Source of the DNA: Albugo candida
Taxonomy: Eukaryota
Assembly (NCBI GenBank): GCA_040437565.1
Contig: JBDOQK010000069.1
Span: 1-64,000, forward strand
Reading direction: 5' to 3'
Length of the DNA: 64,000 nucleotides
Shown: in pieces, positions 1-63,300 of the stretch
Numbering within the stretch: position 1 is the first letter of the stretch
Layout: every line of letters begins with the position of its first letter
Made by a program: the position numbers and the translations under genes
The notes under the pieces: generated by a model
The model's database searches: none
The model's input: the letters and a program-made list of their open reading frames with translations, nothing else
Told to the model about the DNA's origin: nothing

Positions 1-36
1 AAACCCTAAACCCTAAACCCTAAACCCTAAACCCTA
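1..36 (-). repeat. Telomeric repeat tract (TTTAGGG)n, C-rich strand shown
   Basis: Five perfect AAACCCT units plus A at the very start of the window, with the C-rich strand at the 5' end as expected for a left chromosome end. Confidence 0.97.
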
Positions 37-570
37 CTTCGCCGATACTTCTTGCAAACACCGCTAAAATAGTCTACAGTGCTTTGTTGGACAGCTTTGG
101 ACATCAGCACCGAAGCTTGCCAGAACTTCGGCACACAACCTTCTCTGGGTAATCAACGGGATTCGCTGCGTTGTACGCAAGACTCTTTGGATGGAACGAT
201 ACAACACCATCTTTCGGACCAACCCTGCTACAAGCGTTCATGACCTCAACAACATTGGAATATCAGTCACTCGTCAAGCGACCTATTAAATCAAAGCCCA
301 CCTTCAACGCCTTGGACGTATCAATATATTAAACACGCGGCCTTTTCAGCTTTTTGCACGCTACATCGACACAGGGCAGTGTACTAGTGTCAACACCCCA
401 CAGCAACAGCTTCTTCTTCCCTTACCGAAGTTCCCGTTCTACAGTTATGTCTTGTTCCGTTCAAACTCGTGCTTAGCACATACTTGAATGGACAGACTCG
501 TAGGACTACTCTCAGTTAAGGGTTGTTTAAGTCAGTAAGATAGATAAAGAGTGTAATGAAATATTTGACA
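37..570 (+). mobile_element. 5'-truncated LINE fragment (ORF2 C-terminal tail and probable 3' UTR) abutting the telomere
   Basis: Frame +2 from 68 reads ...NLLWVINGIRCVVRKTLWMERYNTIFRTNP..., with LWMERYNTIFR at 185-217. This resembles the W-x-x-R-N-x-x-x-F motif at the end of L1/Tx1-type ORF2. The frame continues past a TAA at 287 (IKAHLQRL...) to ~486. The 3' boundary is approximate. Confidence 0.6.
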
Positions 571-750
571 AACCAGACTTGCCCTCCACTTCTAAATTTG
601 CTTTCTAGTGCGCAAGTGATATTCACACCGGACTTTTAAGGAGCCAATCAGCAAACTCCCCTTACACCCACTCCCCGGATTTTTTACAGCCTTTCGGCCC
701 CCTTTACCAACCTTTCCCAGCCTTTCCATCCCAGAAGCCCGTCTTAACCA

Positions 751-951
751 GCCTTTCCGTCTTCGAGGGATGCGAAGTCAGTTCTTACTCGTCTTTCCTT
801 CTTCGGAAGTAGCAGAAGTCCGGCTTTATTAGCCTTTCCTTCTTTGGAACAAGCAAAGACCAGGCATCTTGGCCTTTCCTCCTCTGCATTAGTCAACTTC
901 AGCCTTTACAAGCCGTTACTTCTTCGGAAGGAGTAGAAGCCCACCTTTATG
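751..951 (+). repeat. Degenerate ~40-bp tandem monomers in the LINE 5' UTR
   Basis: Units start GCCTTTCC/GTCTTTCC at 751, 791, 832, 872 and GCCGTTAC at 912. The core TCTTCGGAAG-(T/G)AG(C/T)AGAAG is shared by the 791 and 912 units. Confidence 0.7.
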
Positions 952-2475
952 GCTTCCACCAGACCGCAGTCTAATGTTGACACATCATGGCGCATCAAAT
1001 TCCTGGAAAATCACCCCCACAAAGTCTGTTATGTCCCAAATGAGGACGTATCTCAAGCATTTGAAGATGCCGTAGCATCATTCAAAATTCTGGCTTTACG
1101 TGAACTACAAAAATCGCGCATCGATCCATGCGACAAGATCGAAATGTTTATTCCGGCCCCAAGATTAACAACAGCATTTCGTCTGGATGAGATCCTACTC
1201 TCTCTACACCTCGAAGCACAAACGGCCACTTGGACTATGGCCTTGGACTCTTTGTGCGACTTTGTCAGCATCAAAAATAGAGGTATCATGTCTCACTGTC
1301 TCGACAGAACTGTGGCCCAAAAACTCGGCGGCACTGCAGTGCAATGTATGGGAAAACAGTTTGTGGTCCAACCATACCGTCGCTTTGGTGACTGGTACTT
1401 TGTCGAACTCAACAAAGTGCCAATGGGTCTACCAAACGACCCGATCACTTCCTTCCATCCATTAGGCATCCCCTTTGTGGTGACCCCGAGCACCAAGCCA
1501 GGCCTTATAGAATCAAGTGATCGGGTCGTTTGGTTCCGGTCCAAAATCGCCCCAAAAGGTCTCTTTACGGACACACAACAACCTTTACGGGAAATTTACT
1601 TTGCTGGTTTGCCTGACCCAGTTTACGTGCACCACAAACATCGTGCGCACAACCAAGTCACTCCACGCACAATATTGGCTAAGAAAGCAGCAATCAAAGC
1701 CGCTAAGGGATTCAAGCCATCGAAGAACACACTTCGACACATTGACCTTACAGCCACGCACACCCCCGCGGAAGTCAGCTCTTCCAACAACTTCCCCTCT
1801 TTGGTATGCCCCACTACCAAGGACTCTTTCGACACTTGGATACAAGTCTCGAAGTACATTAATTGTCGTAATCGACTACCCATTCCAACAGCAGAAGTGA
1901 TTCCAGTATCACCCTGCACAGACGAGGAAGAATCGTTCTTCGACATCCCGTTTACTCCCAGTCAATCTCAACTCGCCTTCTCTCCTATGGACGATGATGG
2001 TGGGCACGATATTACATGTATTGTCATGGGTCCCAACGGCATAGTTCGCAGCAACCCACTTTACCCCTGCGAGCCGATCGCACGTATGTTGGAGGAACAA
2101 TGCCTCCACAAAGACCCAAAGAAACTGGTCTCCAAAAGTGCCCGACGAAAGCACATCAAGAAGACCCAAGTCACCTTTAGGGGTCTTGGTGACCCCGAAA
2201 CACGTCTTGCTGCCATTGCAGCACAACCCTCCATTGTGGCTCCTACTTTCTTGGTTCACACTATCGAAACCCATGCAATGTTCCGGGACCATGCAATCCT
2301 ACGGGCTATCAGCTTCGCCCCTAACAACACTCATGGACACGCTTCCAGTCTGGTTAGTCGACTCCATCATCACTATGGAGAAAACGTACCATCAGGTGGC
2401 GTTCTCTTCGCTACGTTATTCCCTGATGAAGAAACACAAACACTTGCTTTGGCTCTGGCTATCTCCGACCTTTAA
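949..2475 (+). CDS. LINE ORF1 (gag-like nucleic-acid-binding protein), 508 aa open; ancestral ORF probably ran to 2796
   Basis: Long ORF directly upstream of the APE-RT ORF2. The same frame resumes after two TAA codons (2473, 2500) as ORF 2503-2796. Segment SDRVVWFRSKIAPKGL..REIYF resembles TWIVYFASSTCPESL..KKIAF in the ORF1 of the LINE at ~46.4 kb. Confidence 0.75.
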   Translation: MASTRPQSNVDTSWRIKFLENHPHKVCYVPNEDVSQAFEDAVASFKILALRELQKSRIDPCDKIEMFIPAPRLTTAFRLDEILLSLHLEAQTATWTMALDSLCDFVSIKNRGIMSHCLDRTVAQKLGGTAVQCMGKQFVVQPYRRFGDWYFVELNKVPMGLPNDPITSFHPLGIPFVVTPSTKPGLIESSDRVVWFRSKIAPKGLFTDTQQPLREIYFAGLPDPVYVHHKHRAHNQVTPRTILAKKAAIKAAKGFKPSKNTLRHIDLTATHTPAEVSSSNNFPSLVCPTTKDSFDTWIQVSKYINCRNRLPIPTAEVIPVSPCTDEEESFFDIPFTPSQSQLAFSPMDDDGGHDITCIVMGPNGIVRSNPLYPCEPIARMLEEQCLHKDPKKLVSKSARRKHIKKTQVTFRGLGDPETRLAAIAAQPSIVAPTFLVHTIETHAMFRDHAILRAISFAPNNTHGHASSLVSRLHHHYGENVPSGGVLFATLFPDEETQTLALALAISDL

Positions 2476-2814
2476 CTCCGCTCCTATGGTGCGTCACTGT
2501 AAATGGATCCCCTCAGCGTTGGGGCTTTAATCACAGAGCCTCAACCTTCGTTTATCCAGCAAAGTCTTTTTTTACTTTGGGATGATAGCGTCCTTATGGC
2601 TTTGGCCGCATCAGAGCTGGACACATCTCTGCTTACGACAGCACCAAAATTTGTGGAAGACGCGTGTGGTCTCCCCCACTTCACGTATTCGTGCGCGGAA
2701 GACAATATGGCGCAGTCTAGTACTTCTTCTGGCATGGATCTTGCAGAACACTCCGACTTAGTCGTCTCTAGCTCGACATCTTCCCCTTGCCTCTAAGCAG
2801 CCTTGATCCTTCTC

Positions 2815-5800
2815 CGGTCTTTCACTCAATGTGAACGGACTGAATCATGAGAACCCGGCTTTTTATCGCAAACTTCTACCTCAACACCAACTTATATCCT
2901 TTCAAGAAACCCGTTTCAGTACTGAAGGCAGCAAAGACCGCAACACTTACCTCATCAACACCGTGGATTCTGGCGCTACTACGTTTTACTCCCCCTTGGA
3001 CAATCCTCATGGAGTGGGCCGTAATGGACTTGCCTTAATCTTACCATTCAGTCACCCCTTTGAACCCTTGCTCGACATTACTTCCCAGTATATTCCAACC
3101 ACCAGTCGCACGCTACCTCCTGATCGATACCACATTGGATCAACAACCGCTTTGGATTCATGTGGTTTATGCACCGGCATAACTAGCAGCCAGAACTTCT
3201 TTCTTCGATTCTCTACCAAGCGATATTCCGGACGGTATTCAGCACATAGTCTTAGGGGACTTTAATGTTCCCTTCGATCCTGTTCTGTATTCCTGCACAT
3301 CTCTCTCTCATGCATCATCATCTACGGCATTACAATAATACGCTCTACATTTAGGCCTTGTTGATGCTTGGAGAGAAACTTCCCCCAACATACAAGAGTT
3401 TACCGGCCCGAGACGCCGAAATCGCACTGACTACTGCCTCTTATCATCGGATCTCTTTACCAACAACTTAGTTCATATGAAACATGACTCGGAAACTCAA
3501 TATCATCTAGCGGATCACTTGCCTGTCATTTTTCGATTACAACATGCTGCCTACACCGTTTGTTCACGCCTACCTTGGAAATGCCCTACTTGGCTTTGAA
3601 AAGTGCCTTACGTCCAAGACGTCCTAAAGACTCGACTTTACATCTAGTGGATCGACTTCGCTTTGGAGGAGAGGACAACCCTGGCGCTTTTCCGAAGAGC
3701 ACAAGCGTTCCAACCTTCTTTATCTCCGGCATCAATTCCAAACAATCAGGACTCACCAGCAACTACAACTTACACAGTTACGGCGTGACTACCACACTGC
3801 CGCCCATCTTGGAGCTCTCCCTACGACTTCCAACACAAATCACGCACATCTTCTTCTCACGGAAGTTAACGAGGAAGAAACCAGGCGCAAAACACTTGGT
3901 TCGTGGCATCATTTCGACAATACAATCCGATACAGTGAAAAAGCTACCAAACCCTTTCTCCGACCCCCTACTCCAGTTTTATGCCAAGTATGCATTCCAT
4001 CCACTCAACGTATCGACGGATCTCAAGCCACTTCTCCTGATGAAATGACGGCGATCCATCGTGATTACTGGTCACAAATCTTTCAATTACCTTCAAAAGA
4101 ATATTCCTCCAGTGTTCATTACCGCAGACATGGCCCAGTTCAGCTAAGCTCTTTTCTACAGCATACCACACAAACCCTTACCGATCACGATCGCGCATTT
4201 CTCGATGCCCCTTGTACGGCGAACGACTTTTACTGGGCAATCAAGACGTCACTTCGAAACAAAGCTCCCGGATATGATGGCCTTCCAGTAGAATATTATC
4301 AATCTTCCACATCGACTTGGGCGCGGCTCTTTGAGTTAGTTTACCCCGCACAACGATCCAAAGGACGAATGACCATGTTCCAACGAAAGCTACAGTTACA
4401 CTTCTATATAAGAAGGGTGACAGAAGCCTTCCAAGTAACTACCAACCTACTACTCTCCTCAATCATGACGCAAAGCTCGGTCCCAAGTTTCTTACTTACC
4501 GCCTTCGCAACGTCCTACCGAAGCTACTCCACCCCGATCAAAGTGGCTTTGTTCAAGGCAGATCAATTCGACATAGACTAGTGCGGTTTCAAGACATCCA
4601 ACAACTCTGCCTGCAACGATTTCCCAATGCTGGTGCTATCTTATTGGACTTCGCCACGGCTTTTGACAGTGTGTTGTGGCCTGCTCTTCACACTGTCTCA
4701 AACCATTATGGCGTTGGGGCTACCTTTCGCTCATGGATCAAGCCCTTTTAACAAGATAACCTTATCGCTATAATGGTGAATGGTCGTGCAAGCAAGTTCT
4801 TTCAACTCGGAAGCGGCGTTCGTCAACGTGACCCCCTTTCACCTTCTCTTTTTGTGCTCTTCCTGTAACCCTTAATGAATTATCTCCGCGCAACGACAGG
4901 TCACCTTAGCATACCCGTCCAAGGTTCATCAGTACCTCAACACCTTACCGCCTTTGCGGACGATTGCACCGGTTTTCTCAAAGATCTCCGAGACACACCT
5001 CGCTTTATGACCAAGGTCAAAGATTATACACAAGCTACTAGGCTCCAACTCAATCCATCCAAAACTCAGTTATTTGGCTATCAAGTATCTTCTCCGGATT
5101 TAGTGGATTCCTTGGCATTACTCCCTCGGACGTTTTCTGCAGTGTTCCCCAAAGTCACATTTCTTGGTGTGAAACAATACCAAGACCTCAACATATCTTC
5201 ACGCTTCCCTTCCTTGCTCAGCAAACTTCAAGCTCGAATTGTAGCATGGAGATTTCGAGACAGGACACTGCATGGCCACGGAGTGATCTTACGATCTATT
5301 GTTTATCTCTTCTCTGGTACCCTGCGGCAGTTACGCCTCTTCAATCCATCACTATCGACTCGGCATGGAAGTTGTGCAAAGCCTTCCTATATCAACGGCC
5401 AACCGAATTACGTTACAGACAGCATGCGGTGGTTTAGGCCTACCTTGTCGCCAAGATTTCTTCCGGGCAATGCATCTTTGCCTTATAAGGGACGGTATTA
5501 AGGTTTTTTTAGCCTGTACTCCCCCTTCATGGTTCCTACCAGCAATTCAATTAATGACGGAATCACTTGATGGTACCGGTGTTGGTTTGGACTTACTCTA
5601 TTCTCTTATTCATCTCTCAGCTATACCGCAACCTCGTTGGTCGTGCCTTGGTTCCCTATGGTATTCAACGTTTCAACAATGGTATCGTCTCCTCCAAGGA
5701 CCTTCCAACACTACTACCCATACTACCCATGCAATACAAGCACCTATATGGCGCCACTACCAGCGCGTGTTTGGACCGAAACAGCGCCCTATGGAACATG

Positions 5801-6100
5801 CAAGTATTCATACTCGACTGCTTTATCAGCATGGATGTTAACATCTTTCCGACTTTATCGGTCGCTTCGGTTCCCTGACTACTCACAAATTCCTCAAAGC
5901 AGTCCTTCCAGTTACAGCTTTTCACCGGCAAAGAGATTACATGGCAACACTCAACCTTTTCACCAAGTACTTTGAGACACTTATATTCACTCCTTTTTCA
6001 CTCCCTTTGAGTCAAGTGACCAGAAAAGTTATATTGACTTGCTTTCGATTGAAGTTCACTCCCGTCTACGTGTACTCTTAAGATAAGAGAACTTTTTGCC
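2815..6100 (+). pseudogene. LINE ORF2 (AP endonuclease + reverse transcriptase), frameshifted and stop-disrupted
   Basis: APE motifs: SLNVNGL (2822), FQETRF (~2900), VLGDFN (~3250), LVDAWRE (~3360), ADHLPV (~3510). RT motifs: KAPGYDGLP (4261), LLHPDQSGFVQGRSI (~4525), LLDFATAFDSV (~4641), GVRQRDPLSP (~4815), AFADD (~4950). Motifs are spread over several frames. Confidence 0.92.
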
Positions 6101-6399
6101 CTCTCCGCGTCTTACCATCCACCAACTTTAACTATGCATGGTGAAATTGTACTGTAAAGAGAGCGCTCATAGTAGCAAGGCAGTAGTGATAGAATGGAGG
6201 CAAATCGTAACTGACGCCACACTTTCTGTCTCTTAGATACAACAGACGCAACCGACTTGTCTTTGACATCAATATTGGAGGGTTTGCATCCGCCGCGCGA
6301 CAACGGTATGTAAAGAGATGCTGACAGTCACGTAATAATAGAACTCTGACGAGCAGCAAATGCCACACTTTTCCGCTTAACTTACGCGATTAACCCTTC

Positions 6400-7310
6400 A
6401 GCAATTCAAGAGGCCGAATAAGGTAGCCGTGAAGAATTTTTTTCCGAGGCACAGAAATGAGCTCTTGGTCAGGGATGCGCAGTGACTATCAAACGTTCAG
6501 TTACCGGAAAAAATGCATACTTGAAATGTAACCGTGGTGGCGCACACCTGTCTCAAATATCAGAACGGAAGCGACAGACAACATCTTGGCGCATTGAATG
6601 TCTTTTTCTCCTCTCTGCGAATTATCAAAAAAAGTGAATGGAAGTGAAAGACGATACAAAGCTAGCACAATCACGGATGTTCTCTTCATCCCTCCGGGCA
6701 TTCAACCCATAGAAAGCTCACCGAAGAACAGGCAGAAGAACTGAAGAAAAGGACAAATGAGGGTGTCAAACCGACTGTAATTTTGCCAGCGCTAAGGATG
6801 ACGAAAAAGAACACCTTCGCAATTCTGCGCACAATGCATAAGGCTCGAGTCAAAGTTCGAAGCAACCAACTCGCGGGAGAACTGCCCTAGGAACTCTTTT
6901 TGATGATCTTCGAGAAAGTGACTATGTGCACCATATCAAAGCAAATAAAGGCGGAAACATTACTGGCCTATTTTTTGCGCATCCGGACAGCGTGAAGCTG
7001 GAGAATCAATACAATCACGTTGTTGTGATAGACTGCACGTATAAAGCGAATCGTTACCGAGTCATCTTTCTTCACACCATCGAAATGACCGCGTTCAACT
7101 AGACGTTCACCATAGGTTTCTGCTTCCTCGCCGGGTAGAAGGTGGAAAATTATGTGTGGGTAATGTCGAAAATTGTCAACAGTGTGGAAAAATGGATCTG
7201 CGTCAAAGGTAATCATCACGGACCGGGAACTGGCCCTTATGTCGGCCATCGCACAAGTCCCCCATCGTCCTCGAATCTGCTCAGCATTTGGCATATCAAT
7301 AAAAGAAGAT
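6400..7310 (+). mobile_element. Mutator-like (MULE/FAR1-type) transposase remnant, 3'-truncated
   Basis: N-terminal FAR1/WRKY-like segment (AVTIKRS..YLKCNRGG..RKRQTTSWRIEC..HNH). MULE DDE-domain segment FFAHPDSVKL..VVVIDCTYKANRY..FTIGFCFL..ENYVW..VIITDRELALMSAI..NLLSIWHINK. Contains stops and frameshifts. Confidence 0.85.
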
Positions 7311-7326
7311 TTTGGAGTTACTGAGT

Positions 7327-8941
7327 CATTCTACTTTGACCTTCACAAATGAGGAGAAGAATGTTGCTGGCGAACCATTGGTGACCTAATTACTCGCTTT
7401 GACATCATCTTACTCGCAAAAGATCATTCAACTGGAGGAAGAGATAGATGCGCTTACGAAAGATGAGAAGAAACTTCCAACAGCCATTCATAGTAAAGCC
7501 AACACGACAATGCGCTTCTCAAGATTACACGAACAGCTGTAAAGTCTTCAGCAGCAAGTTGGCTTTGCCCGTGGTGCCGAGCGGTAAGGAAAAAGACTCA
7601 CTTTACAGCTCAAGAATGGTACATTGAAAATCACACCATTAGAGAACAAAGTATCTTCGATGAAAAAACAAAAGGCGAATTTACAGCGTCAATTAAAGGA
7701 AGAATCCGAACGTCATCAGAAAGAAAAGCGCCAGCAACAACTGCGGATACTTCGTCTCAACCGTCAGGAAGAGCGAAAGCAGTACCAATTACAGAAATTG
7801 TCGGAATTACATGCTAAGCAGAAAACTGTTTTGAAACGGAAGACTGAAGAAGTTGCTGCTGCCAAGCGAATGCTCATGATGCACAAGTCTTCCACTTTAA
7901 AAAAGTCCAAAAGCGCATTATGCACTTCGAAACTCCCACTTCGTTCAGCCCCTGAAGCGATGGCGTCTCCTGTTCCCGTATAGGCAAGTAGCCTAGTTCG
8001 TGAGATTCTCGACGTACAAATCACTCTGCTGGGAGCACATAGTGATATTCGGACGTATCAAGACGAAAGGTTAGAACTGGCCTTGAAAATAGCTCAAGTC
8101 GAGAAATCGGGATGTGCAAGGACTGAGGATTTAAAGTCTCTCGAATCATGGAAGCGTCTTCTTCGCGAGAAAGATGAACTCATACGAACGCTACAAGCCA
8201 AAGTTGCTACTGTGGTAAAATAGAACCCGGTTCCCGATGAACTGTGAAAGAACAATTGTGTCATTTTATTATTAAATCTCTTTTGGAAGAAGCAATCGGT
8301 GGCAAAGCTACGAATTCTGAGCTGAAATCGTGTAAAAAAGATCTACGTTAGACAGAAGAAAGACTCGTTCAAGCTTTGGGAGACCTTGACCATCTCCGTG
8401 ATCATGCACATACCAAGACAATAGCTCCCAGTAACGAGACGATGCAAGCAAGACAAAAATTTGTGATATAGCCACTACACCTTGCTGTGCACGATGTGAA
8501 AGAGTCTCAATCGGAATTGAAGAAATTGAAAACCTTTTCGCAGAAAGAAAAACGTATGAAATTCTCAGTGACGACGGGCTCGAAGACTGGATATCGGAAA
8601 AATGGAGTGCTGACGACTATGATTATGTTGAAGGTGAAGAGCAACTGAGAGCGGTGAAGAATCGGAAGCGTCTTGAGCAGAACGCTCGAGCTGATTCGGT
8701 CACGTGCCTCGAAAAAGCATCGGCTGGTCCTAGAGACAGTATGGAAGAGATTGATCGGCTTTTACTGCATGTCTCCGAGTCCAAATCTGATTGCTGTCAA
8801 TGCAGTGGAAGATGTACGACAAAATTGTGTGCATGTCGTGCAAATAAACAAGACTTTGGAAATAACTGTTCGTGTTATGCTCTAAAATGTCATAATCGTC
8901 CTGAGAAGAGACTTCGACTTCAAAAAAAACATTTTGGATGA
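7327..8941 (+). pseudogene. Kinesin-4 (KIF4/chromokinesin-like) stalk and Cys-rich tail remnant; motor domain absent
   Basis: Coiled coil MKKQKANLQRQLKEESERHQKEK..KQYQLQKL..KQKTVLKRKTEEVAAAKR (7624-7983) matches the conserved KIF4 stalk (..VLRRKTEEAAAA..). C-terminal CCQCSGRCTTKLCACR..CSC..KCHNR (~8790-8900) matches the KIF4 CXC tail. Multiple in-frame stops. Confidence 0.82.
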
Positions 8942-9051
8942 ACAGCATGAAGCACCAGCTGCGTCTCTGAGTCTCTGACTTCAAATCAGCAAGAAAACGA
9001 CATCGGGTTGAGCGTCGCGTAATAAAAACGATCCTTTCTCTCCACTTCATT

Positions 9052-9801
9052 TCAGGTGTTTTGATCGCGATTATTTCTACTTCCTCTGAATTGTATGTTT
9101 TTCTTTTTCAACACCTCGATTCCTTCAACATTTGCGAAATCGTAATGATTTATAATATCTGCAGTGAATGTGTACTGATATAAATCACTCATATTGTCAT
9201 CGATATTACTCAACTGCATCGTAAACGCTTGCATTTCTTCGGGTTTGAATGGAAGAACAACATATAGTGGGGAATGGAAGGCGTGCACGGGCTTCCTTGT
9301 CATAAAAACGTGCTTGTAGTTGTCCATATTCGTAAATGCGGCAAAGTAGCAGTGGTGTGCTAGTGAGCGCAGAGACGCGTTCTTTTGAGTATCCTTTGCA
9401 ATCCTCAGACAGAATGTAGAACTGTGAGCTAGGATGGGTCTCAAATCATACGAGGCGATGCAGTTGCAGTCTAGCCACACCGCATACATACGCAAAAGAC
9501 CTCGTTCTAAACTCAAAGATGGAACTTTATCGTCCTGAAGAAGAAGTACTTGGGCCAAAAGGTTTCGAGTATGACTTTGCTGAAAAGTATCCTGATAAAT
9601 TTGTAAAATTCGACGTGAATGGTGATATCTGCATTCCTCCCAATCGAAAAAGCCTTTTTGAAAGAATGCCAGACCCATTCCAGCACAATCGTGTCCTTCA
9701 ACACTTTCCTTAAAGCCACAAATGAAGTACCTGAATGCGTTGCCTATACTATTCACAAGCTCGCAATCTCCCGGTGCTGACTTGATACATTTTATCGTCA
9801 T
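9052..9801 (-). CDS. Hypothetical protein, 249 aa, intact and intronless
   Basis: ATG-started 750-bp ORF with plausible globular composition, in a region where other ORFs are short or broken. No family recognised. Confidence 0.55.
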   Translation of the reverse strand: MTIKCIKSAPGDCELVNSIGNAFRYFICGFKESVEGHDCAGMGLAFFQKGFFDWEECRYHHSRRILQIYQDTFQQSHTRNLLAQVLLLQDDKVPSLSLERGLLRMYAVWLDCNCIASYDLRPILAHSSTFCLRIAKDTQKNASLRSLAHHCYFAAFTNMDNYKHVFMTRKPVHAFHSPLYVVLPFKPEEMQAFTMQLSNIDDNMSDLYQYTFTADIINHYDFANVEGIEVLKKKNIQFRGSRNNRDQNT

Positions 9802-12800
9802 TTTGTCGTATTTGAGATGTAATTCTTAGTGTCAGTGGTTTCGCAGTATAAAGACAAGCCGACGATGGGTTTCACACATTTTCAGCAAGATCAATTGGGG
9901 AGTGTGGGCAAAGACGCAGCGTTGTGGCTTCAAGACTTTTGGCTTGGTTTCCAACGTCAAGAGCACGAGATGGAGAATTTACAGCTGCATGAAATCAAAT
10001 GAACCACAGGAACTGAAGCCAGTTTCCTCGATATCTTTGGCGGCAATCACAAAAAAGTGTATATTATTTCCAAAGCTGCTGTATACCGCATATCAAATGG
10101 GAGTGATGTTAGGTGAATGAACGGAACAGTATTGTGGCCACACAAACGGGATTTAGTAAAGTGATTCCGCTGCCGTGTCATACGTATTCGCGAAAGTTAG
10201 ATTACTTTGTATTAACGCTGCTTTCTGGCATTGCTCAATTCGCGTACGAGTTGTCGGGTATGTCTGTCTGACTCTGTCCAATCTATTCACACAGCACCTT
10301 GTGCTACAGAGGAACGCATCTCACTTCAATCACTGAGAGGACCAATGCTATTTGGATTATTCGTGAACATTGGCAACTATTAAAGCTCGATCAATTCTTA
10401 TAAAAGCCAAATAGCACGTAACATAAATTCACCGATAACAAAGGTTGATAATGAAAATAATACTTGATATGAACGTAATGTCAAAAAGAGGTCATATTTA
10501 TTTATGAAACATTTTACCATCGTAATGAATGTTGAGAATTTGGCTAAATATTCTACATATAAAAAGCGAATAAAAATAAACAAAATAATGCAATAGCTTC
10601 AATTAACGCAAAGCCTAAAATAGCAGCTCCATGTGGATGATCTACAGGAATTTACTGAACTCCTACATTGGGTCTTTATTCCCAACGAAGTTGTTGGATG
10701 TGAGCAACAGAACGGATACGCAGATAAGATGCGGATAGTTTTTAAAGGCGTAGATTAACTGTTACGTGAACTAAGGACCTAATATAAAGTACTCTCGAAT
10801 TCAAGCTCGCTAGGTCTCTTTGGTTAGAGATCGTCTACAGAGCTCTAATGAATATCTGGAACTGTAGAATGCAAGAAACTAATTCTACTTGATCGTGAAC
10901 TTGATTTTATATTCGCATGAGCTCAGGTGTCACATGATGTACTTTCACTTTCACGATAGACTCGATCAGTGCTTCACATAAACAAAAATATTGAGTAATT
11001 CCAACAAAAATATACAAATTACAGGAACTATTTTTTATCAATAGCTTTGTATGCTAAGAAATCTCTTCGATTACATTTTTTTTCATCTTTATTAACTTTT
11101 ATCGCTTATTATACGTTAGTAAACGTAGAATATTATCATCTATTCAACGTAGAAAAGGTTGAAAAGGTTCTAGGAAGGTTTGATTCATTACAACCTTTGG
11201 CAGCTGGTCTATAACTCTTCACTATAAACTATACCACCGTGTGATGCAGATACTATTGTATTATTATTATCCGAGTTATCACCTCGTTACAAGGTGTATT
11301 GCATGCTAGCTCAAGCCAGCTTTTCATACCTCACGTTAACGTTCCTGTCAATTGTAGACTTACTCGCAATGTGATCTTAGCGGCGAAAGAACGCTCCAAT
11401 CATCAACACGTCGCTTGGGCTTGATACCGCCCGCACTGATGATTATGGCGACTTTTGCTATCGTACGACGCGAGAAGATGGTTGAGCAATCATTCTTACT
11501 CCTTCAGGTCATCTTGTCTATCGGTAAGTCTGTGGTTGAAGCAAGCAGCTCCATTAAAATGATGCTTCGATGCGGTCTAATATGAAGGTGGTCCCAACAC
11601 TATCTTGCGAGCTATTCCGAAGTCTTGGTCAGTGTACAAAGTGCCAGGGGAAAATGTATTTTGATTCCAAAGCAGATCCAGCGACAATTAGATACTTGCG
11701 CTATGACGAATCATTTTAGACACAAGTAGATAACATTGAAGATTTCTTAATTTACTTCGATGTATTTCGAGCTTTCGCAGAGTAAAACTACAGGACAACG
11801 TCACGGCAGCAATATCTCAGTCTTTTGTTTATGCCTTGTCGATAGGATGATCGCACTGCAGGCCAATATGAATATGATCACGGAAACAGCAGAAACGTTT
11901 CCAAAATTTTGCTTTGATCCTAGAGGACTCGTATTGGCCCTGTTTTTGAGTCTTGATTCCGAGAGATGATACTGGTGTATGTGAATTATCATGCTTTAGT
12001 TTTGGTCTTCAATCTCATCATTAGATGTTTGGTAGTTCGGACAATCTTCGTCGATAAATTCCATTGCGACCATGAGCACGATGCCATGCGGTACCTCCTA
12101 TAGTATCTGAGTTTTTTAATGTAACATTGGTCATATTACCTCGATTTGACTCGATAGATAAAGATTTTGGTTTTGTGAAGCTCGAGATCCCCAAAGCTTC
12201 TAAAAAACTATGATAACTACTTACAGACGCTATAACAAAAATTACCAAAGTGGCAGAGATTCGATGCGCGCGATGGTGAAGAAAACGTGGCTCGATTTGA
12301 AAGCAGAAATGAACGAGATATTAATATGGATCCTGCATCACTTCTTCATACAAATACATTGGAAGAGGTTCAAAGTGTCAAAAAAACATATGAGGCATCT
12401 ATATGGAGTCGGAGACGGGATCTGGATCATCAGTGAAGGCTCGCAAATCGATTCCAATGATAAGAATCTTGACGCGAATAATCAATTATAAAGAATCACT
12501 CATATGTCGAACGCAACAGCACCGATGCGACTTAAATGATCAAATCACTGATTCTCATCAGCATTTAGTATCGACTGGTCCTGTTTATATTATACCGAAA
12601 AGAAACATTAATAAGGCAGGTCTGACAATTACACCGTTATCTGTAAGGTGGATTACATAATTTGAAGTATTGTAACAGCTCGGACGCGTGGCAACTGTAG
12701 GATGCCCATATAGCGAGTGTTGGTATTGAATACCGCGCATATCAAATCGCATTGACTAATAAGTCTTCATTACGCAGAATCTTGATGCGGCGTTGGTAAT

Positions 12801-14393
12801 TTGTGTCTTCACCACGACAGCTGTGGATGCACTTTCAAGCTAAAAGTACATATCGCTTCCTGTGATTTATCACGACGGAACAGGGGAAGACCTTGTTAAT
12901 CAACATGTGTACATACATCGTTTTATTTTCTTCGGGGCGAAGCTGTACTATAAGATGTTTATAGTTTGTATGTATCTCTCCACTTTCGATGCTACAAGTA
13001 GCACTCAGATTCTAGAAATCCTTGAGAGCATAGTTATTTGCTCGGAAACTATTGACATCTCTCGAGCTCCGCATTGCATAGAATAAGAAGTGTGATATAA
13101 GATTCAGCTTCAGCTTCATCGACGCCAACACGTGACTTATCCCATTGGTAGCGCTAGTAGTATGTGCAATCAGGGAGTTAGGCGAGTAGCTGCAGGTCCA
13201 GCTAGGAGAGTCGACGCAGGCAGTGCGTGCAAAGCTTCTTCTCATAAAACGCTGCATCCTATTCGTATTCACAAATTGTCACTCTCGATGTCCGAAGCCG
13301 CATAATATGACAAGAATGGCTACATTTCGTTTCTGTGTCAGCTTGCTTGCCGCTATATCTCATGCAAGCCACCAAACTGGATGTAAGATACTCTCGGCTC
13401 CATCAAGAGGTCTTTCTTTCATCAAGAATGCTGTATTTTATGACTTCTCTCTGGTTACTTAGTTTCTCCTCGTGTAATATTCTTCTGGCCTTGTTCATCG
13501 AAAATTGCAACGAGCCATTTGAGGCCACTTTAGCATTTCAACAGTATGGGTAGCATTAGTTCTGCAAATTTATCCATTAAAGTCACCTATGGCGAGAGAA
13601 ATTTGAAGAGTGTCAGAAGTTCACGCTATGCTAAGCAAAGTTGACATTGAATTTTCTTACATGAGACGAAAAGTTTAAAGTGTCATCCGGGTTTCCCATT
13701 TCGGATGGGTGCCTTGTGAACTAAAATACGCATGCACAGGCTTTGCTGAATGATCTTGTTAATTTTCAAGGTATGTTGACTCATGGCGCGCATTGATAGA
13801 CTTTTATCTTACTTTTGGAATAGTAATTTTCGTCTCCTATTGTCGGCCATAATACCTCAGTGGTGAATACTATATCTTTCGGAGAGATGAAAAGTTTTTT
13901 GCTTTCAACAGATAAACTTACAATAAGATGATTAAGGGGGTTTACTCCCCGGTGCTGGTGGGATGGACGTCTTAATGTTCACAGTTTTTTTTTGCACTAT
14001 ATGGCGTCATTAAACATGCTTGGGAGCTGTCGTGGGTTCCCGTCAGTGTTACTTCAGCAGCATCTGTTATGGATGGCATGTGCTGATGTTATCAACCAGC
14101 AAATCTTTCTATAGCGATCCCAACAAACGCACGAGTCGACAGACTAGAATTAGATGGCTTTGAGAACAGTGCAATGGTGGTGGTTGATACCAAAGCATCA
14201 TGACGTAGCATCCGTCTATTGAACACGCTATGGGAGTTGCTTGTTAGGCGACCATTGTCATCGGTGGCACCAAAAGCCATTCTGGGAGAAATTGAGTCGT
14301 CTAATCACTTCTAGAAGATGACAAAAAAATACATTCTAACTAAATCTTTCGACGGAATCAAACAAGAAGAGAATGGTCTGGAGAAAGTAAAAG

Positions 14394-14493
14394 NNNNNNN
14401 NNNNNNNNNNNNNNNNNNNNNNNNNNNNNNNNNNNNNNNNNNNNNNNNNNNNNNNNNNNNNNNNNNNNNNNNNNNNNNNNNNNNNNNNNNNNN
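14394..14493. other. Assembly gap (100 N)
   Basis: Run of N. Confidence 1.
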
Positions 14494-34261: not shown

Positions 34262-34361
34262 NNNNNNNNNNNNNNNNNNNNNNNNNNNNNNNNNNNNNNN
34301 NNNNNNNNNNNNNNNNNNNNNNNNNNNNNNNNNNNNNNNNNNNNNNNNNNNNNNNNNNNNN
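34262..34361. other. Assembly gap (100 N)
   Basis: Run of N, with AACATTACGG repeated on both sides. Confidence 1.
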
Positions 34362-42699: not shown

Positions 42700-45600
42700 T
42701 TGCTTTGTTGACCATATTGCTTGCTCGAAGAAAGTCTTGAACACTTTGGATCACAAAAGCTACAGAGAACGATTTCAAGATGTGGTTCCCTTACCATGTC
42801 AAGATTCTACCACAACTTTTGCATACTTGAATTTCGAGTAGAACCTTCGTAGTGTAGATTTTCAATCACAATGGAACCACATGGGTTGTTTCATAGTGGT
42901 ACAGACGGCGTTGGAGGATATTCGAATATGAAATTATAATGCCTAATCTATCTGATGCCACATTTGGTCGACGCATCGGATGCAAATTGCTGGAGGAACT
43001 GAATGCGTTGTCGCTTCAGTCGTCCCACCAAAAACAGAAATTGTAGTCCACCATCTTTTGGACAAGAATATAAAACCTCTTTGCTGATCAGATGAACGTG
43101 TTTTGAATCCTTTTTGATATTTCCGACCAACCACAAATCGATTCGGTATCGCCTACCACTGTCGAATAGTGCTCGCTGGTATGTCCACGTGCATCGTGTA
43201 ATGCCACAGACGTGATATAATGTACGTATGCGCAACCACTAGTCGACCACGGATAATTCGTGCACGTCACCACAGTACACCAAACGCAGCGTAAACGCTC
43301 GTCGAGAGTTGCAATGACCATCGAATGAGTTGCTGTCTGGCCGAACGGAGTAACCGAATCCTTGACCGAATATACCAGTGAGATATCGAATTTGGTGATG
43401 CATCGACCGTCCTTGCACAAATGCTTTTTGATCTTGGATCAATTTCGGCAAAACCCAGTTGCAATCGATATGCCAACAACTTTGAAAGTACTTTTACATC
43501 GACAAAACGTAGTTCGATTGGCGATAGTTGCCAGGATCACCTCGTGCTCCTTTTTTTGTGTAACAAGGTGATTGCCGAGTGACGTTGTGATCGAACTAAG
43601 ATACTTCTTTCCAGATGATATTCGAACACGATCTCCCGACAATCGCCAAACATTTCCGGGTGAAGCTGATAGAATGTAGCTGGTAGCGTAACTATACGTG
43701 GAGTGGAAATACTCCGCATGTGCTTGATCGCTTCGCCATCTGGGTCTTACTTATGCGAGTTGATAGACGATCTTGCACTTCTGGCAAAAGGAAAACTTAA
43801 ATCGAATCCGGTAGCTTTTTTTTCTTTCACTGGATCAGTTGAGTCGCTTTCGGATACATAGAGAAAGTTTATGACACCACCCCAATGATCTCTCAGGTGC
43901 ACAATAATTTCACTCGGGTTCGATGTCGTGTTGCCACATTTTTTGTTGACGTTTCGATCGGCACGCGACGACAATTTCTTCCCGGAGGGCGAAAAAAAAA
44001 TGCTTGGATGACTTCTCCATATGCATACGTGATGCTCGAAGCCTTCACCTTGCTGTATTTGGCATTGTTTTCGACCGAAATTTTGGATTTTTCGACTTAA
44101 TACGTAAAAACGCCGTGACTGATCGGTATCTTGAGTGCTATATCGAGATGTTATCGCTTCCAAAACACTTTAGAGAGACTCAACATCACGTCAGATACCT
44201 TCTGAGATCTTGTTCTCAATTCCTGAATGCAGTTTCTTGATTTTTGTCTTTTTACTTTCCCACATTTTTCCGGGCTTCGAAGCTACCGGAACCTTCAAGC
44301 AATGAAGTCGCCTTCAATTGGATTGCTTCGACAACTTGACGATATTCAAATAGGCGTAGTAAAGATGTCTAATATTCTCGCCCCGCCCCGGAGATTGGTT
44401 TGGAGTCGTTAAAGGTACTTATTGTGCCAGGTGATCTCCTCCATGTCGTGGACGAAAATATTCAGTCTTTGTATACCGTATCAAATAGTTTTCTGTCCTG
44501 CTGATATAATTTAGTCAATTGTTGCCCGGCAATGGTCCTGTAAGAACTTTTCCATTCGGATGTTGCACTCGCCAAGCGTCTACCAAATCCAGTGCCAAAG
44601 CTATTCCAAACACGCTAATCGAGTTAATTCTTGTCGAATTGTTCCACTGGAGAAATCATAGAGTGGTGCGTTGCAAATACGAGATTTGTTGCGGCCGATA
44701 CGAAAGTGCTGAAGAGCAAAGAATATTAGAGAATTACTCTTTCCTCGACCTTGACCGGTGTCTATACACTGTAAGTATACACCGGTGCATCGTGAATGAG
44801 AAGACGCAAACGAACTAGCGATTGTAAATACTTCGTTCGGTAAGTTCTTCACCCATTGTAAAACCAAGAGAGTCCGAACGGAGAATTATCAACACATTGC
44901 CGCTGTGCATTTGAGTTGTATGTAGAAAAACACTGTTGTGGTCGTTGATTAACATTCTGTGCTGCATTTCTGAATTTATTTTAACTCAAATGATTCCAGC
45001 TGGTTGTGATCGTGAAACTTGGTTTCTTCATCACAGCTAATCGGATGTTTTGAGAGGACGTGGTCGATAAAAAGATAATCATTTGATCAATAGCATCAAC
45101 GTTCGCCTTGAGTACTGAGATGTTGTTTCACGTTGATATGAAGGCGACCAGCGCAGCTTGCATAAAGGTAATGTGTTGCATACTTATTCAAAGAAAAGTA
45201 AGTATTGCAAAGTCAGTCTTGCTGGACTGCTCATCTATTTCACCCGAGAGAACGCCACTTTTAGTCCGTTTGGACCAGCACCTAATGTTCAACTCTGAGT
45301 GTGACAATACGACAATGCCAGTAGCATATTGGTGATAAATAAGCGACAATGAGGATCCGGAATGCAAATAATTGTCCCTTAAGCTAGATGATGAATATTT
45401 ATGTATAGAGTGGGGGGGGGCAGTACACATCATAGGTTGTCCATAGTAATTCGTCACCGCTAAAGCTCTCATTTCCGGCACCGACCTCCACCTGGAGGCT
45501 ATTTTCTCAAGTACCACGTCACGATCGATGGAACTTTCCCACTAACATATCAACCCCATCATGCTGAAAAAATTTAACACCTCACTAAGATCACGAGGAG

Positions 45601-47032: not shown

Positions 47033-47132
47033 NNNNNNNNNNNNNNNNNNNNNNNNNNNNNNNNNNNNNNNNNNNNNNNNNNNNNNNNNNNNNNNNNNNN
47101 NNNNNNNNNNNNNNNNNNNNNNNNNNNNNNNN
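47033..47132. other. Assembly gap (100 N) flanked by an identical 135-bp overlap
   Basis: 46898-47032 is repeated at 47133-47267. Confidence 0.98.
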
Positions 47133-60399: not shown

Positions 60400-63300
60400 A
60401 AAAATTAGTAAATGAAAACTTATCACATATCGTCGAAAAGGAACAGTACGAGATCGTGGTAGGTAGAGATGGAGGAAGTAGAAGCGGTTGAAAACCCGGT
60501 GCAAGGAAACCACATCCAAATTACCCGCGTGAAAACATAAAGGCCAAAAGCGGTGGCCACATTGAAAAAGCCGCACACATTTTTAGATAACGTCACACGA
60601 GTTGAAAAAGTGGAGCGACCAACCAAGCTGGTTAGGCTGGAGAGATCATGAAAGTTGATTCCGAATATGGTATACACACAATTCGACCGGACAAGATGAT
60701 CCAAGCTGACGCACTGATTGAAAATGTCCGCAGGCTAGCTCAGCTCGCATAAATCTGGGCAAACTAGTACGAGCAGCACTTTATTGGCACTTTATTATCC
60801 GACCGCCATCAGTCTTGTCCTATTAGCGTGTATGGAGTCAAATGATAAAAGGTTGGACGAATTGGTGCATTTGCTGATGATCAAGCGAGTATTTGCTGCA
60901 CGTGATCTCAGCGAAGACGTACGGTTTCTGCGGGATGGGGCGACGTGTTGGTGAGAAAGTTCCATCGAGACGTGACTTGATGTTCAAGAAAATTGCCATA
61001 TGGTGGAGGTAGGTGCCGGAGATAGTTGTCAGTTTGAAAATAGAAGCATGTGCTCTAGCGTTAATATGGATTAGTCCTGACGTGTACTTCCCCCACCCTT
61101 TGAACCACTGAAAGAGCAGTGATTTGAATTCCGGGATATCATTGTTGCTTATTGCCCACCAATATGTTACTGTCATTGAGCATTCAGAGGTGGGCATTTG
61201 GTATCGGTCCCATGGATTGAAGTTGGCGCTCTCGGGTACATCGATGAGCTATCCGGAAAGACTTACTTTTCTTCGACAGCAATTCACCTCTATGCAAGAT
61301 GCACTGGTCGAGTTTAGCAATAACGTTAAGGGCTCCTCGATTACGTCAGCCTGGAACAATTTTAGCACTCACGGTAAATGTTAATGGTATTCATGAAAAT
61401 GTTTTGCTTTTTATCGACCACACCCTATCAAAGCATTCGATTAGCTGTTTTGAAGAAATCAAATTTCGCGATCACAACCAACTGAAATCGTTTCAGTTTT
61501 TAAATCATTCAAAAATGCAGCATGAAAATATTCATCAATGATCAAAAAAATTTCGTTTCTACTTCTAACTAAAATACGCAGTGGCGATGTGATGTGATGA
61601 TATTCCTCCGTTCGGATATTCCTGATTATACAGCAGCTACATAAATCAATGAACGAAGAACTCGAAATTTCTACTTGGTTTTGTGTCTTCTTATGCACGA
61701 TGCACCGGTGCGGTCCGAGGAACGAGTGGGTTTCTTTGAGTTATTGCTGCTCAGAACAATTTAGTCGGCAGCGACACATTCATAGTATTTGGCGATCAAG
61801 CACACCACTTGATCCAGTTGTCGATGCTTAAAGTTGAACGCTTCGAAACGAACCCAGTCGGTTAGCGTGTTTAGAATGGCTTTCGTAGTTGCGTGTGGTA
61901 GAGGCTTAGCGAATCCAACATCCTACTGATAGAGTATTTACAGGGCCATTACCTCACAAAAAGCAATGAATCACATCTGTATGTCAGAAGAGCTACCATA
62001 TCTTTTATACAAAGACGATAGATGTTTTCGATCATGACATGCGAGAGATCATCTGGCACAAAAAATAACTTTTGCAAAGATAACTCAATCTTCGGAGCGA
62101 GGATATTTGAAATGTTCACTACAACTATTACAATATTCTCAAGTTGTCAGAGCAATCAGATTAGAAACGATTTCGGTGCTCAAAAGTGCCAACAACTTCG
62201 AATCCGAAAAAATGGGGAAAATTTGGAAGACGAAAAGCAAGAAACAGTTTAAAGGAATTCACACGATAGTCGACCCGATGTTGAGTGTGACCAGCGTGTT
62301 TTGCAATCACCAACAGCTCGATACCGCAAGCAAGACACCATGCAGTCATAACATTTTTTCGAACGATTCAGTAGTTCAGTCGAAAACAATGCCGAATACA
62401 GCTACGATGAAAGCTTCCTTCATCACGGTAAGCATATGGAGAACTCTTCCAAGCATTTTTTTTCACCCTCCGGAGAGTATTGGCGTCGTGTGCCGATCAA
62501 AAATGTCACCATAAAATGTGGCACTGTGTCATCGCATCGAACCCGAGAGAAATCATTGACGTTTTAGGAATCAATAGGGGGTGTCATGGGTCTCTCTGTA
62601 GCTCCGAGCCCGAATCAGTCGATCCATGTGAAAAAAGATCAAATGTACTGGATCCGATTCAAGTTTCCTTCACGGCAGAAGAGCAAGACCGTCTCTGTAC
62701 TCTCTTAAGTACGACCGATATTGCGGAAGCGATCGAGCGAAGTAGTTCCTCTCCAGGTATCGATGGACTGCCGGCTTCATTCTTTAGGCTTCATCCGGAC
62801 CTGTTTTGCGCGTGTCTAGAGATCGTGTTCGAATACTTGCTGCGACAATAATGTCCCTCGGGAATCGCATTGTTGTACAAAAAAGATCACGAGGTCATCC
62901 TGGCAACTATCGATTCATCCCATTTTTCTGCATCGATGTGAAAGTACTTACAAAAAGTTTGGCGCATAGATTGCAACGTTTTTTGCCGACATTGATCCAT
63001 CAAGACCCGAAATCACATGTGCTAGGAAGGTGGATGCATCAACATATTGGACATCTCACCGACACACAAGACTTGCTCACGCATCGTGTGGAAGATGCTT
63101 GTGCGACTTTTCTCGACTTCGGAAAAGCTTACGATCGAGTCAATTGAACGTACACGTTTCGCGTTGTGAAAAATGGGGTTGGGAATGTTTCATCGACTGG
63201 TTCGGCTTCTGTACAACAACACAAAGCCGCAGTTGATAATCAATGGCAATATCACACCACGCATTACCCACAACGTGGAGTTAACAAGGCAATTCCCTCT

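Follow-up and report, generated by a model that had tools for sequence, protein, structure and literature searches.

Elements without long terminal repeats (non-LTR elements) that sit at telomeres alongside telomerase are recorded from insects, Giardia, Chlorella, Pyricularia, the anole lizard and rotifers in the pertinent part of a 2023 survey, where SART/TRAS, GilM/GilT, Zepp1 (so that Zepp is listed as well), MoTeR1, Tx1-1_ACar (the telomere-associated element of the anole lizard) and Athena are named as telomere-associated (PMC10088271). Zepp is given as exclusively subtelomeric in a passage of another paper, in which the subtelomeric transposons of Pyricularia are described as occurring genome-wide as well (PMC1635262), and it has been classed as LINE/L1 (LINE, long interspersed nuclear element), the Zepp-like elements of other green algae being centromeric (PMC11005252). 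Full-text searches of the literature gave no account of a LINE associated with telomeres in Albugo or in other oomycetes. The present analysis concerns one end of a contig of Albugo candida (JBDOQK010000069.1, assembly GCA_040437565.1; positions 1 to 64,000 were analysed and are called the window), where a short telomere repeat tract is followed by the 3' end of a LINE (piece A) and then by a second, longer LINE (piece B). An initial annotation, made from the sequence alone, had proposed a telomere-resident LINE family of a kind not known to it in oomycetes, a point with which the literature agrees; among the precedents that it named (HeT-A/TART/TAHRE, GilM/GilT and TRAS), Zepp and Tx1-1_ACar were missing.

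The explanation favoured here, with modest confidence, is that the locus is a genuine chromosome end of A. candida, of which the last 6.1 kb represent a relic head-to-tail pair from one oomycete L1-like LINE lineage in a transposon-rich subtelomere, and that this end was cut back and then healed by telomerase. The parts of the locus, with the evidence that defines each, are given below; proteins used for comparison carry P numbers, and ORF stands for open reading frame, UTR for untranslated region and RT for reverse transcriptase.

1–36, strand not assigned: telomere repeat tract, (AAACCCT)5.1 (Tandem Repeats Finder, TRF).
37–476, + strand: piece A, a LINE ORF2 reduced to its last ~146 codons (tblastn with P0153, P0002, C-terminal profile).
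477–575, + strand: presumed 3'UTR of A (after the ORF2 stop; GC-skew plateau at nucleotides (nt) 500–600).
576–948, + strand: presumed 5'UTR of B, with five tandem monomers (repeat search).
949–2796, + strand: ORF1 of B, gag-like, no Pfam domain (alignments to P0003 and P0005).
2807–3614, + strand: AP-endonuclease region of the ORF2 of B, broken (alignment to P0001).
3628–5401, + strand: pre-RT and reverse-transcriptase region of the ORF2 of B, broken (RVT_1, P0002).
5428–6081, + strand: post-RT region of the ORF2 of B, ending prematurely (P0002, C-terminal profile, GC skew).

The tract at nt 1–36 has a period of 7 and comprises 5.1 copies of the unit AAACCCT with 100% matches (TRF score 72), and its C-strand reads inward, the polarity to be expected of a left chromosome end. 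It is the sole run of two or more telomere units within the 64 kb window; single CCCTAAA heptamers number six, against 5.0 expected by chance, four of the six being inside the tract and the other two isolated, on the - strand at 2176 and 54795. G-quadruplex motifs are confined to the tract, with none in A or B. As had been noted from the letters, the tract joins directly to a C-terminal fragment of ORF2: the repeats are perfect as far as nt 36, and the match of LINE coding sequence to P0153 sets in at nt 37, degenerate repeats and subtelomeric satellite being absent in between. Such an abrupt joint, lacking a transition zone, is a signature of de novo telomere addition. The scaffold contains three runs of exactly 100 N (14394–14493, 34262–34361 and 47033–47132), and nt 1–14393 form a gap-free stretch. 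Those gaps, together with a repeat of only 36 nt, could be taken to mean that the tract is interstitial and merely telomere-like, that a read end was mis-joined, or that the A/B junction is collapsed or chimeric. An artefact of this sort is nevertheless considered very improbable, given that the tract is perfect, begins at the first base of the window and has left-end polarity; that both LINE pieces fall within the gap-free stretch; that the ORF1 of B is annotated, with identical residues, on a 159-kb A. candida contig; and that A stands at 77% to its nearest database relative and is a copy of nothing else in the window.

That nt 37–570 are derived from a LINE, as the initial annotation had supposed, is borne out by P0153, by P0002 and by a profile of the C-terminal region of the family. 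With the 73-amino-acid (aa) ORF of A as query, a single protein was returned among four candidates, namely P0153 (219 aa), and tblastn of this protein against A gave matches in three frames with a joint E value of 7e-45: aa 75–105 correspond to nt 37–135 (frame +1), aa 106–201 to nt 134–421 (frame +2; 74 of 96 residues identical, 77%) and aa ~189–219 to nt 381–473 (frame +3). Independent support is provided by P0002, an ORF2 protein of 1214 aa obtained by way of piece B, of which residues 1099–1165 match nt 116–340 (E 4.6e-5); it was alone in matching within nt 1–700 when all 152 stored proteins were compared by tblastn. The C-terminal profile, of 320 positions, was built from the 14 of 20 family proteins that share the region, six partial or weak ones being left out, and its best six-frame match in the whole window is at nt 122–319 (positions 222–280, independent E value (iE) 3e-5). 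A Pfam scan placed none of the three ORFs of A in a family. The reading frame of A is broken by two frameshifts (~nt 135 and ~nt 400–420) and by in-frame stops at 70–72 and 287–289, and closes with a natural ORF2 stop, TAG, at 474–476. At its other end A is 5'-truncated exactly at the telomere junction, which therefore lies inside coding sequence, and the retained part is downstream of the zinc knuckle. Some 100 nt of purine/A-rich sequence, with an approximate 3' limit, come after the stop codon, where neither poly(A) nor a microsatellite was found; nt 477–575 are presumed to be the 3'UTR of A.

Piece B spans nt ~600–6080 on the same strand as A, and comprises a 5'UTR, ORF1 and an ORF2 with an AP-type (apurinic/apyrimidinic) endonuclease (APE) and a reverse transcriptase. 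The 5'UTR contains, at nt 735–950, an array of five degenerate monomers with spacings of 40, 41, 40 and 40 nt, which reaches the ATG of ORF1 and in which the identity to the reference copy ranges from 71 to 100%; this array of 40–41-nt monomers was overlooked by TRF at a score of >=30 and was found by a repeat-family search. A small palindrome, CTTCTTCGGAAG, occurs in two of the five monomers. The arrangement resembles that of the monomeric promoters of mouse L1.

ORF1 is open from nt 949 to 2475, i.e. over 508 codons from the ATG; its match to P0003, the A. candida hypothetical protein ABG067_006988, covers 508 positions at 97.8% and includes a single gap, of 10 aa. ORF1 is thus an Albugo candida protein save for those 10 residues, in keeping with the earlier guess of a probable oomycete. 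The A. candida contig on which ABG067_006988 is annotated is 159 kb long. A protein of A. laibachii is 58% identical, and at E 1e-3 or better seven proteins among 8000 scored are related to ORF1, including ones from Phytophthora cinnamomi and, on a 1.23-Mb contig, from Bremia lactucae; another A. candida protein (55–66% identity) is on an 83-kb contig. The longer relatives of ABG067_006988 range from 604 to 642 aa, and P0005 (604 aa) can be aligned from residue 3 to 603 with nt 991–2790 in one frame, passing through two stops, the nonsense codons at 2473–2475 and 2500–2502, where relatives carry Tyr or Phe. In comparison with P0005 and P0007 (634 aa), the ORF1 of B is thus cut short by two nonsense codons. 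The idea that ORF1 had been selectively preserved relative to ORF2 was dropped, because the longer relatives show ORF1 to be truncated too; the difference in lesions, two in ORF1 vs at least 11 in ORF2, is not significant on a rough Poisson estimate. A Pfam scan of ORF1 returned no family; structure prediction from a seven-sequence alignment was too poor for a fold search (mean predicted local distance difference test (pLDDT) 39.8, predicted template modelling score (pTM) 0.28); and a look-up of ORF1 in the ESM Atlas gave best scores of 0.86, under the useful range.

The ORF2 of B was recognized by RVT_1 in two of the 13 ORFs scanned (nt 4335–4751, E 4.2e-9; nt 4869–5501, E 9.4e-5, below the cutoff) and by alignment of its APE and RT regions, within nt 2639–5883, to P0002 and to P0001, the A. 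laibachii protein F0WGB5. Residues 318–530 of P0001 correspond to the Pfam family Exo_endo_phos (E 1.4e-8), and the start of RVT_1 is also present in it. F0WGB5, a ‘pol-like protein’, is a gene model in which an ORF1 tail, the APE and the start of the RT from this LINE lineage are fused, and is comparable with nt 1507–4655. In the APE region the frame passes from +2 to +3 at ~nt 3111–3154, and in-frame stops occur at 3180, 3336 and 3597; the RT region, which is 52% identical to P0002 over 318 aa and in which the FADD motif is still present, has frame changes at ~nt 3614–3680, ~4386–4398 and ~5303 and in-frame stops at 4749 and 4866. With five or more changes of frame and six in-frame stops in total, the ORF2 of B is decayed, as had been claimed. 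Beyond the RT, residues 747–899 of P0002 correspond to nt 5428–5883 and positions 2–64 of the 320 in the C-terminal profile to nt 5827–6009, and beyond ~nt 6009–6080 homology is lost. Against the six-frame translation of the window this profile found only two credible places, nt 122–319 in A and nt 5827–6009 in B, two further rows having E >1. By this comparison B is 3'-truncated, about 250 codons of ORF2 and the 3'UTR (~1.2 kb) being missing; its description as near full-length in the initial annotation is accurate for the 5' side, but not for the 3' side. The zinc-knuckle stretch, which falls between the end of B and the start of A, is in neither piece, nor elsewhere in the window.

As to the kind of LINE involved, the ORF2 layout, an N-terminal AP-type endonuclease followed by a reverse transcriptase (RVT_1 and the alignment to P0001), is shared by full-length relatives, which carry Exo_endo_phos and RVT_1 together with a weak zf-RVT: Exo_endo_phos was detected in P0001, P0014 and P0018, the last two with RVT_1 in addition, and zf-RVT was sub-threshold in five of the six relatives scanned (E 5.8e-4 in P0153). 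A C-terminal Cys-His knuckle, the motif being CX3CX7HX4C, is present in P0002 and P0153, and that of P0153 lies just upstream of the part retained in A. In a search of the PDB human L1 ORF2p was the best match by far (E 4e-41 with P0002, 6e-27 with P0001; R2 ~1e-11); the comparison set contains no Tx1, RTE, I or jockey RTs, and the nearness to L1 thus holds among solved structures. L1 endonuclease chains were matched in the same search, whereas the endonuclease chains of TRAS1 and R1Bm gave no match at E 0.01 or better. The pre-RT region is specific to the family: among 1.84 billion representatives, 144 proteins reached E 1e-3 or better. Judged on these sequence comparisons, the lineage is an L1-like LINE. 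An AP endonuclease is the hallmark of ordinary target-primed insertion.

Both pieces lie on the + strand, head-to-tail, with their 5' ends toward the telomere, the arrangement that had been reported for them, and they do not overlap, as their positions in the C-terminal profile confirm: in reading-frame terms A begins about 150 codons past the point where B ends. No direct comparison at the DNA level relates them, the self-comparison of nt 1–6600 against the window giving the self match only and a Smith-Waterman alignment of nt 37–700 with nt 5701–6500 scoring 19, under the shuffle mean of 21.3, i.e. no nucleotide similarity. Their base compositions are nearly the same (A.261, C.291, G.182 and T.266 in piece A; A.254, C.291, G.183 and T.272 in piece B), and differ from that of the rest of the window (C.199, G.206); the distance between A and B is 0.0096 vs a minimum of 0.030 for controls, none of 1014 same-size control windows (either strand) being as close to B, and in a comparison of dinucleotides there was again no control window as close to B as A. 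Cumulative GC skew falls constantly from nt 1 to ~6100 (stopping at ~nt 6020–6140) and is flat beyond, and P0002 is the nearest relative of A (of 14), of P0153 (of six, 45% identity) and of the post-RT region of B. Because of this near-identical and atypical composition, the uniform skew and the shared nearest relative, A and B probably represent one lineage, belonging to the same or to sister families. The other two LINE fragments in the window lack the C>G bias, and no further copy of the A/B lineage exists in its remaining 58 kb. On the sense strand of nt 1–6100 the bias amounts to a GC skew of about -0.22, with 120 CCC vs 29 GGG runs.

Neither the A/B junction nor the end of B is marked by a telomeric heptamer, poly(A), a microsatellite, a tRNA or an Rfam RNA. 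Both CCCTAAA and TTTAGGG are absent from nt 477–735 as well as from nt 6000–6200, and the statement that the units are separated by neither telomeric repeats nor poly(A) is correct; Rfam gave a single match, to a miRNA, which is sub-threshold and lies in ORF1, and ARAGORN gave no gene. A search for a target-site duplication or shared termini (nt 470–745 vs 5990–6260) gave two 8-mers, matches of at least 8 nt being present in 112 of 200 shuffles, and terminal inverted repeats, by which the cutting of B by a DNA transposon at ~nt 6100 would be marked, were absent. A tail- or site-directed tandem insertion is another conceivable origin of the pair. Several target-specific L1/Tx1-type LINEs prefer sequences recreated at or near their own 3' end, and an endonuclease with this preference could have placed a new copy, B, just downstream of a resident A, the proximity of the telomere being incidental. 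The junction of a complete 3' end with a 5'UTR fits such an insertion, as do short collinear matches (TAAGATA..AGAG and TTGCCCTC) near the A/B junction and the end of B. However, these matches are within chance, and the gapped alignment of the two boundaries was rejected as evidence (p 0.066 in 1000 shuffles; 17% of 713 real control windows scored as high); there is no small-RNA gene or tRNA target at either boundary (Rfam, ARAGORN), nor a microsatellite at the junction, and the missing 3' end of B is left unexplained. Little probability is therefore given to this origin.

Farther in, a weak remnant of a MULE/ZSWIM-type transposase is found just inside B (nt 6842–7102, the extent being also given as nt 6842–7330; E 0.0027, below the cutoff), and a KIF21A-like kinesin coiled-coil fragment at nt 7588–7983 (E 6e-7, below the cutoff). 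Two unrelated LINE RT fragments of more distant families, with 22–34% identity to P0001/P0002, lie at 43462–44655 (-) and 62549–63141 (+).

According to the favoured explanation, a relic pair healed by telomerase, two copies of one lineage would have come to lie head-to-tail either by a template jump in a single insertion, the reverse transcriptase leaving one RNA at its 5' end and resuming at the 3' end of a second, or, alternatively, by insertion beside a resident copy. The chromosome end would then have broken or eroded inside the ORF2 of A, with the loss of all but its last ~540 nt, and telomerase would have seeded TTTAGGG on the end thus exposed, the G-strand reading ...CGGCGAAG-3' and then TAGGGTTTAGGG.... 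B would have kept its 5' end and lost ~1.2 kb of its 3' end by a later deletion or rearrangement, and both pieces would have decayed thereafter. The parts with their order and strand, their decay, the location of the telomere junction within coding sequence and the affinity to L1 are observed; the healing, the way in which the pair arose and the standing of the lineage as an ordinary dispersed LINE, not a telomere specialist, are inferred. Both units are old and dead, with frameshifts and in-frame stops in each, and this decay, like the retention of an AP endonuclease in the lineage, favours a relic. The same can be said of the annotation of ORF1 relatives on other contigs and in other oomycetes, of a neighbourhood that is a transposon sink (the MULE/ZSWIM remnant, the kinesin-like fragment and the two LINE RT fragments), and of the lack of a telomeric heptamer at the A/B junction or the end of B. 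A precedent is offered by Hebe of Adineta vaga, for which the relevant section of its description reports subtelomeric LINEs inactivated by 3' truncation and deletion (PMC2861651).

Several observations weigh on the other side. A different mechanism is end-directed retrotransposition, in which the lineage, or a reverse transcriptase acting without endonuclease, primes on the free 3' end of a chromosome. Priming of this kind is the mode of Drosophila HeT-A/TART, Giardia GilM/GilT and the endonuclease-independent capture of L1 at uncapped mammalian telomeres. Here B would have been primed internally on its own RNA at a former end near nt 6100, and would for that reason lack its 3' end; A would have been added onto the 5' end of B, eroded and re-capped by telomerase, the family acting as an occasional healer of ends. 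End-directed addition predicts precisely such a same-strand pair, with 5' ends outward and a 3'UTR-to-5'UTR joint, an arrangement that chance would not commonly produce; the architecture fits unit by unit, from the strand and the distal 5' ends to the complete 3' end of A meeting the 5'UTR of B and the distal unit that is 5'-truncated and repeat-capped. The 3' truncation of B is atypical of target-primed insertion and demands an extra event if the pair is a relic, whereas a 3' truncation without poly(A) is expected of internal priming on a free end, judging by the properties of endonuclease-independent insertion that Morrish et al. reportedly described (2002/2007). A and B are alike in composition and have the same nearest relative, the remaining 58 kb are free of the lineage, and in both pieces the antisense strand is rich in G (G 0.29 vs C 0.18), so that a G-rich strand runs to the chromosome end and continues the polarity of the telomeric G-strand, a polarity described for several telomeric retroelements in the corresponding part of the 2023 survey (PMC10088271). 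A relic of two members of one lineage is also not helped by a rank test of A and B over 14 shared relatives, which gave no correlation (Spearman rho 0.07, p 0.80, and -0.17, p 0.57), a weak test in that A is too short and P0002 alone aligned convincingly; for P0018, P0025, P0052 and P0063 the alignments were weak, though at homologous positions, and for the rest the positions were non-homologous. The label of ordinary dispersed LINE is itself presumptive. Against end-directed addition stand a single locus with two units only, the heavy decay of both with no sign of recent or recurrent addition, and the AP endonuclease retained in the lineage; no oomycete telomeric LINE having been found in the literature, the idea is novel yet without support. 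It is thus regarded as possible, though doubtful.

The broader proposal that an oomycete-wide L1-like lineage adds itself to free ends, forming 5'-outward chains alongside telomerase in Albugo, is unlikely, and a telomere-dwelling element is at present a lead and not a proof, resting on one locus and two units. If it were true, stramenopiles would gain their first LINE associated with telomeres, a counterpart of HeT-A/GilM that is of L1 type and bears an APE; the telomeric G-strand would be continued by its G-rich antisense strand, and its monomeric 5'UTR promoter would face the tip. Should the lineage be enriched and oriented at chromosome ends, the stramenopiles would join the groups that have non-LTR elements at telomeres alongside telomerase, and the finding would bear on how chromosome ends, which in plant pathogens often carry effector genes, are rebuilt after breakage. 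If, on the other hand, the pair is a relic only, the locus is an ordinary transposon-rich subtelomere with a telomerase-healed break, and its use lies mainly in annotation: ABG067_006988 is the ORF1 of a dead LINE and F0WGB5 a LINE ORF1/ORF2 product, neither of them a host gene. The ORF1 family is kept across Albugo, Bremia and Phytophthora.

The known systems resemble this locus in different respects. Chromosome healing, in which telomerase repeats abut non-telomeric sequence without a transition zone, here inside an ORF, accounts for the telomere/A junction only, not for the head-to-tail pair. TRAS/SART of Bombyx and Tx1-1_ACar of Anolis are likewise APE-bearing LINEs that coexist with telomerase repeats; theirs, however, are flanked by repeats on both sides, whereas here repeats are only distal to A, and their lack at the internal flanks of the units excludes the TRAS/SART mode. 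Zepp of Chlorella vulgaris is an L1-type LINE beside (TTTAGGG)n in a telomerase-using protist, and the coexistence of a LINE with the TTTAGGG repeat is therefore not new in itself; Zepp is said to form nested clusters of poly(A)-tailed, 5'-truncated copies, and the Albugo locus, unlike these, has neither nesting nor poly(A).

In layout, the Giardia elements GilM/GilT are similar in having head-to-tail units at a telomerase-maintained end, the outermost being 5'-truncated and directly capped by repeats. Arkhipova & Morrison (2001) reportedly described many near-identical, apparently active units, found at chromosome ends only, and the Giardia units are said to be intact, homogeneous and 3'-complete, whereas here there are two dead units and the proximal one lacks its 3' end. 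HeT-A/TART/TAHRE share with the Albugo pair the distal 5' ends, the head-to-tail order, a terminal unit that has lost a variable part of its 5' side, and a G-rich strand that runs to the end; they differ in that Drosophila has no telomerase repeats, while (AAACCCT)5 caps the end here, and in that Drosophila units are joined through oligo(A), of which there is none here. They are also assigned to the jockey clade in the Hebe paper (PMC2861651), while the Albugo lineage is nearest to L1 ORF2p. Hebe itself, as portrayed in that section, is a jockey-clade element, with an enrichment demonstrated by library screening, and in these respects differs from the Albugo lineage; it is an ordinary two-ORF APE-RT LINE, enriched in subtelomeres, and resembles the Albugo pair in that it takes the proximal end of a head-to-tail retroelement chain at a telomere and in that its copies, as B, are inactivated by 3' truncations, deletions and stops and not by 5' truncation (PMC2861651).

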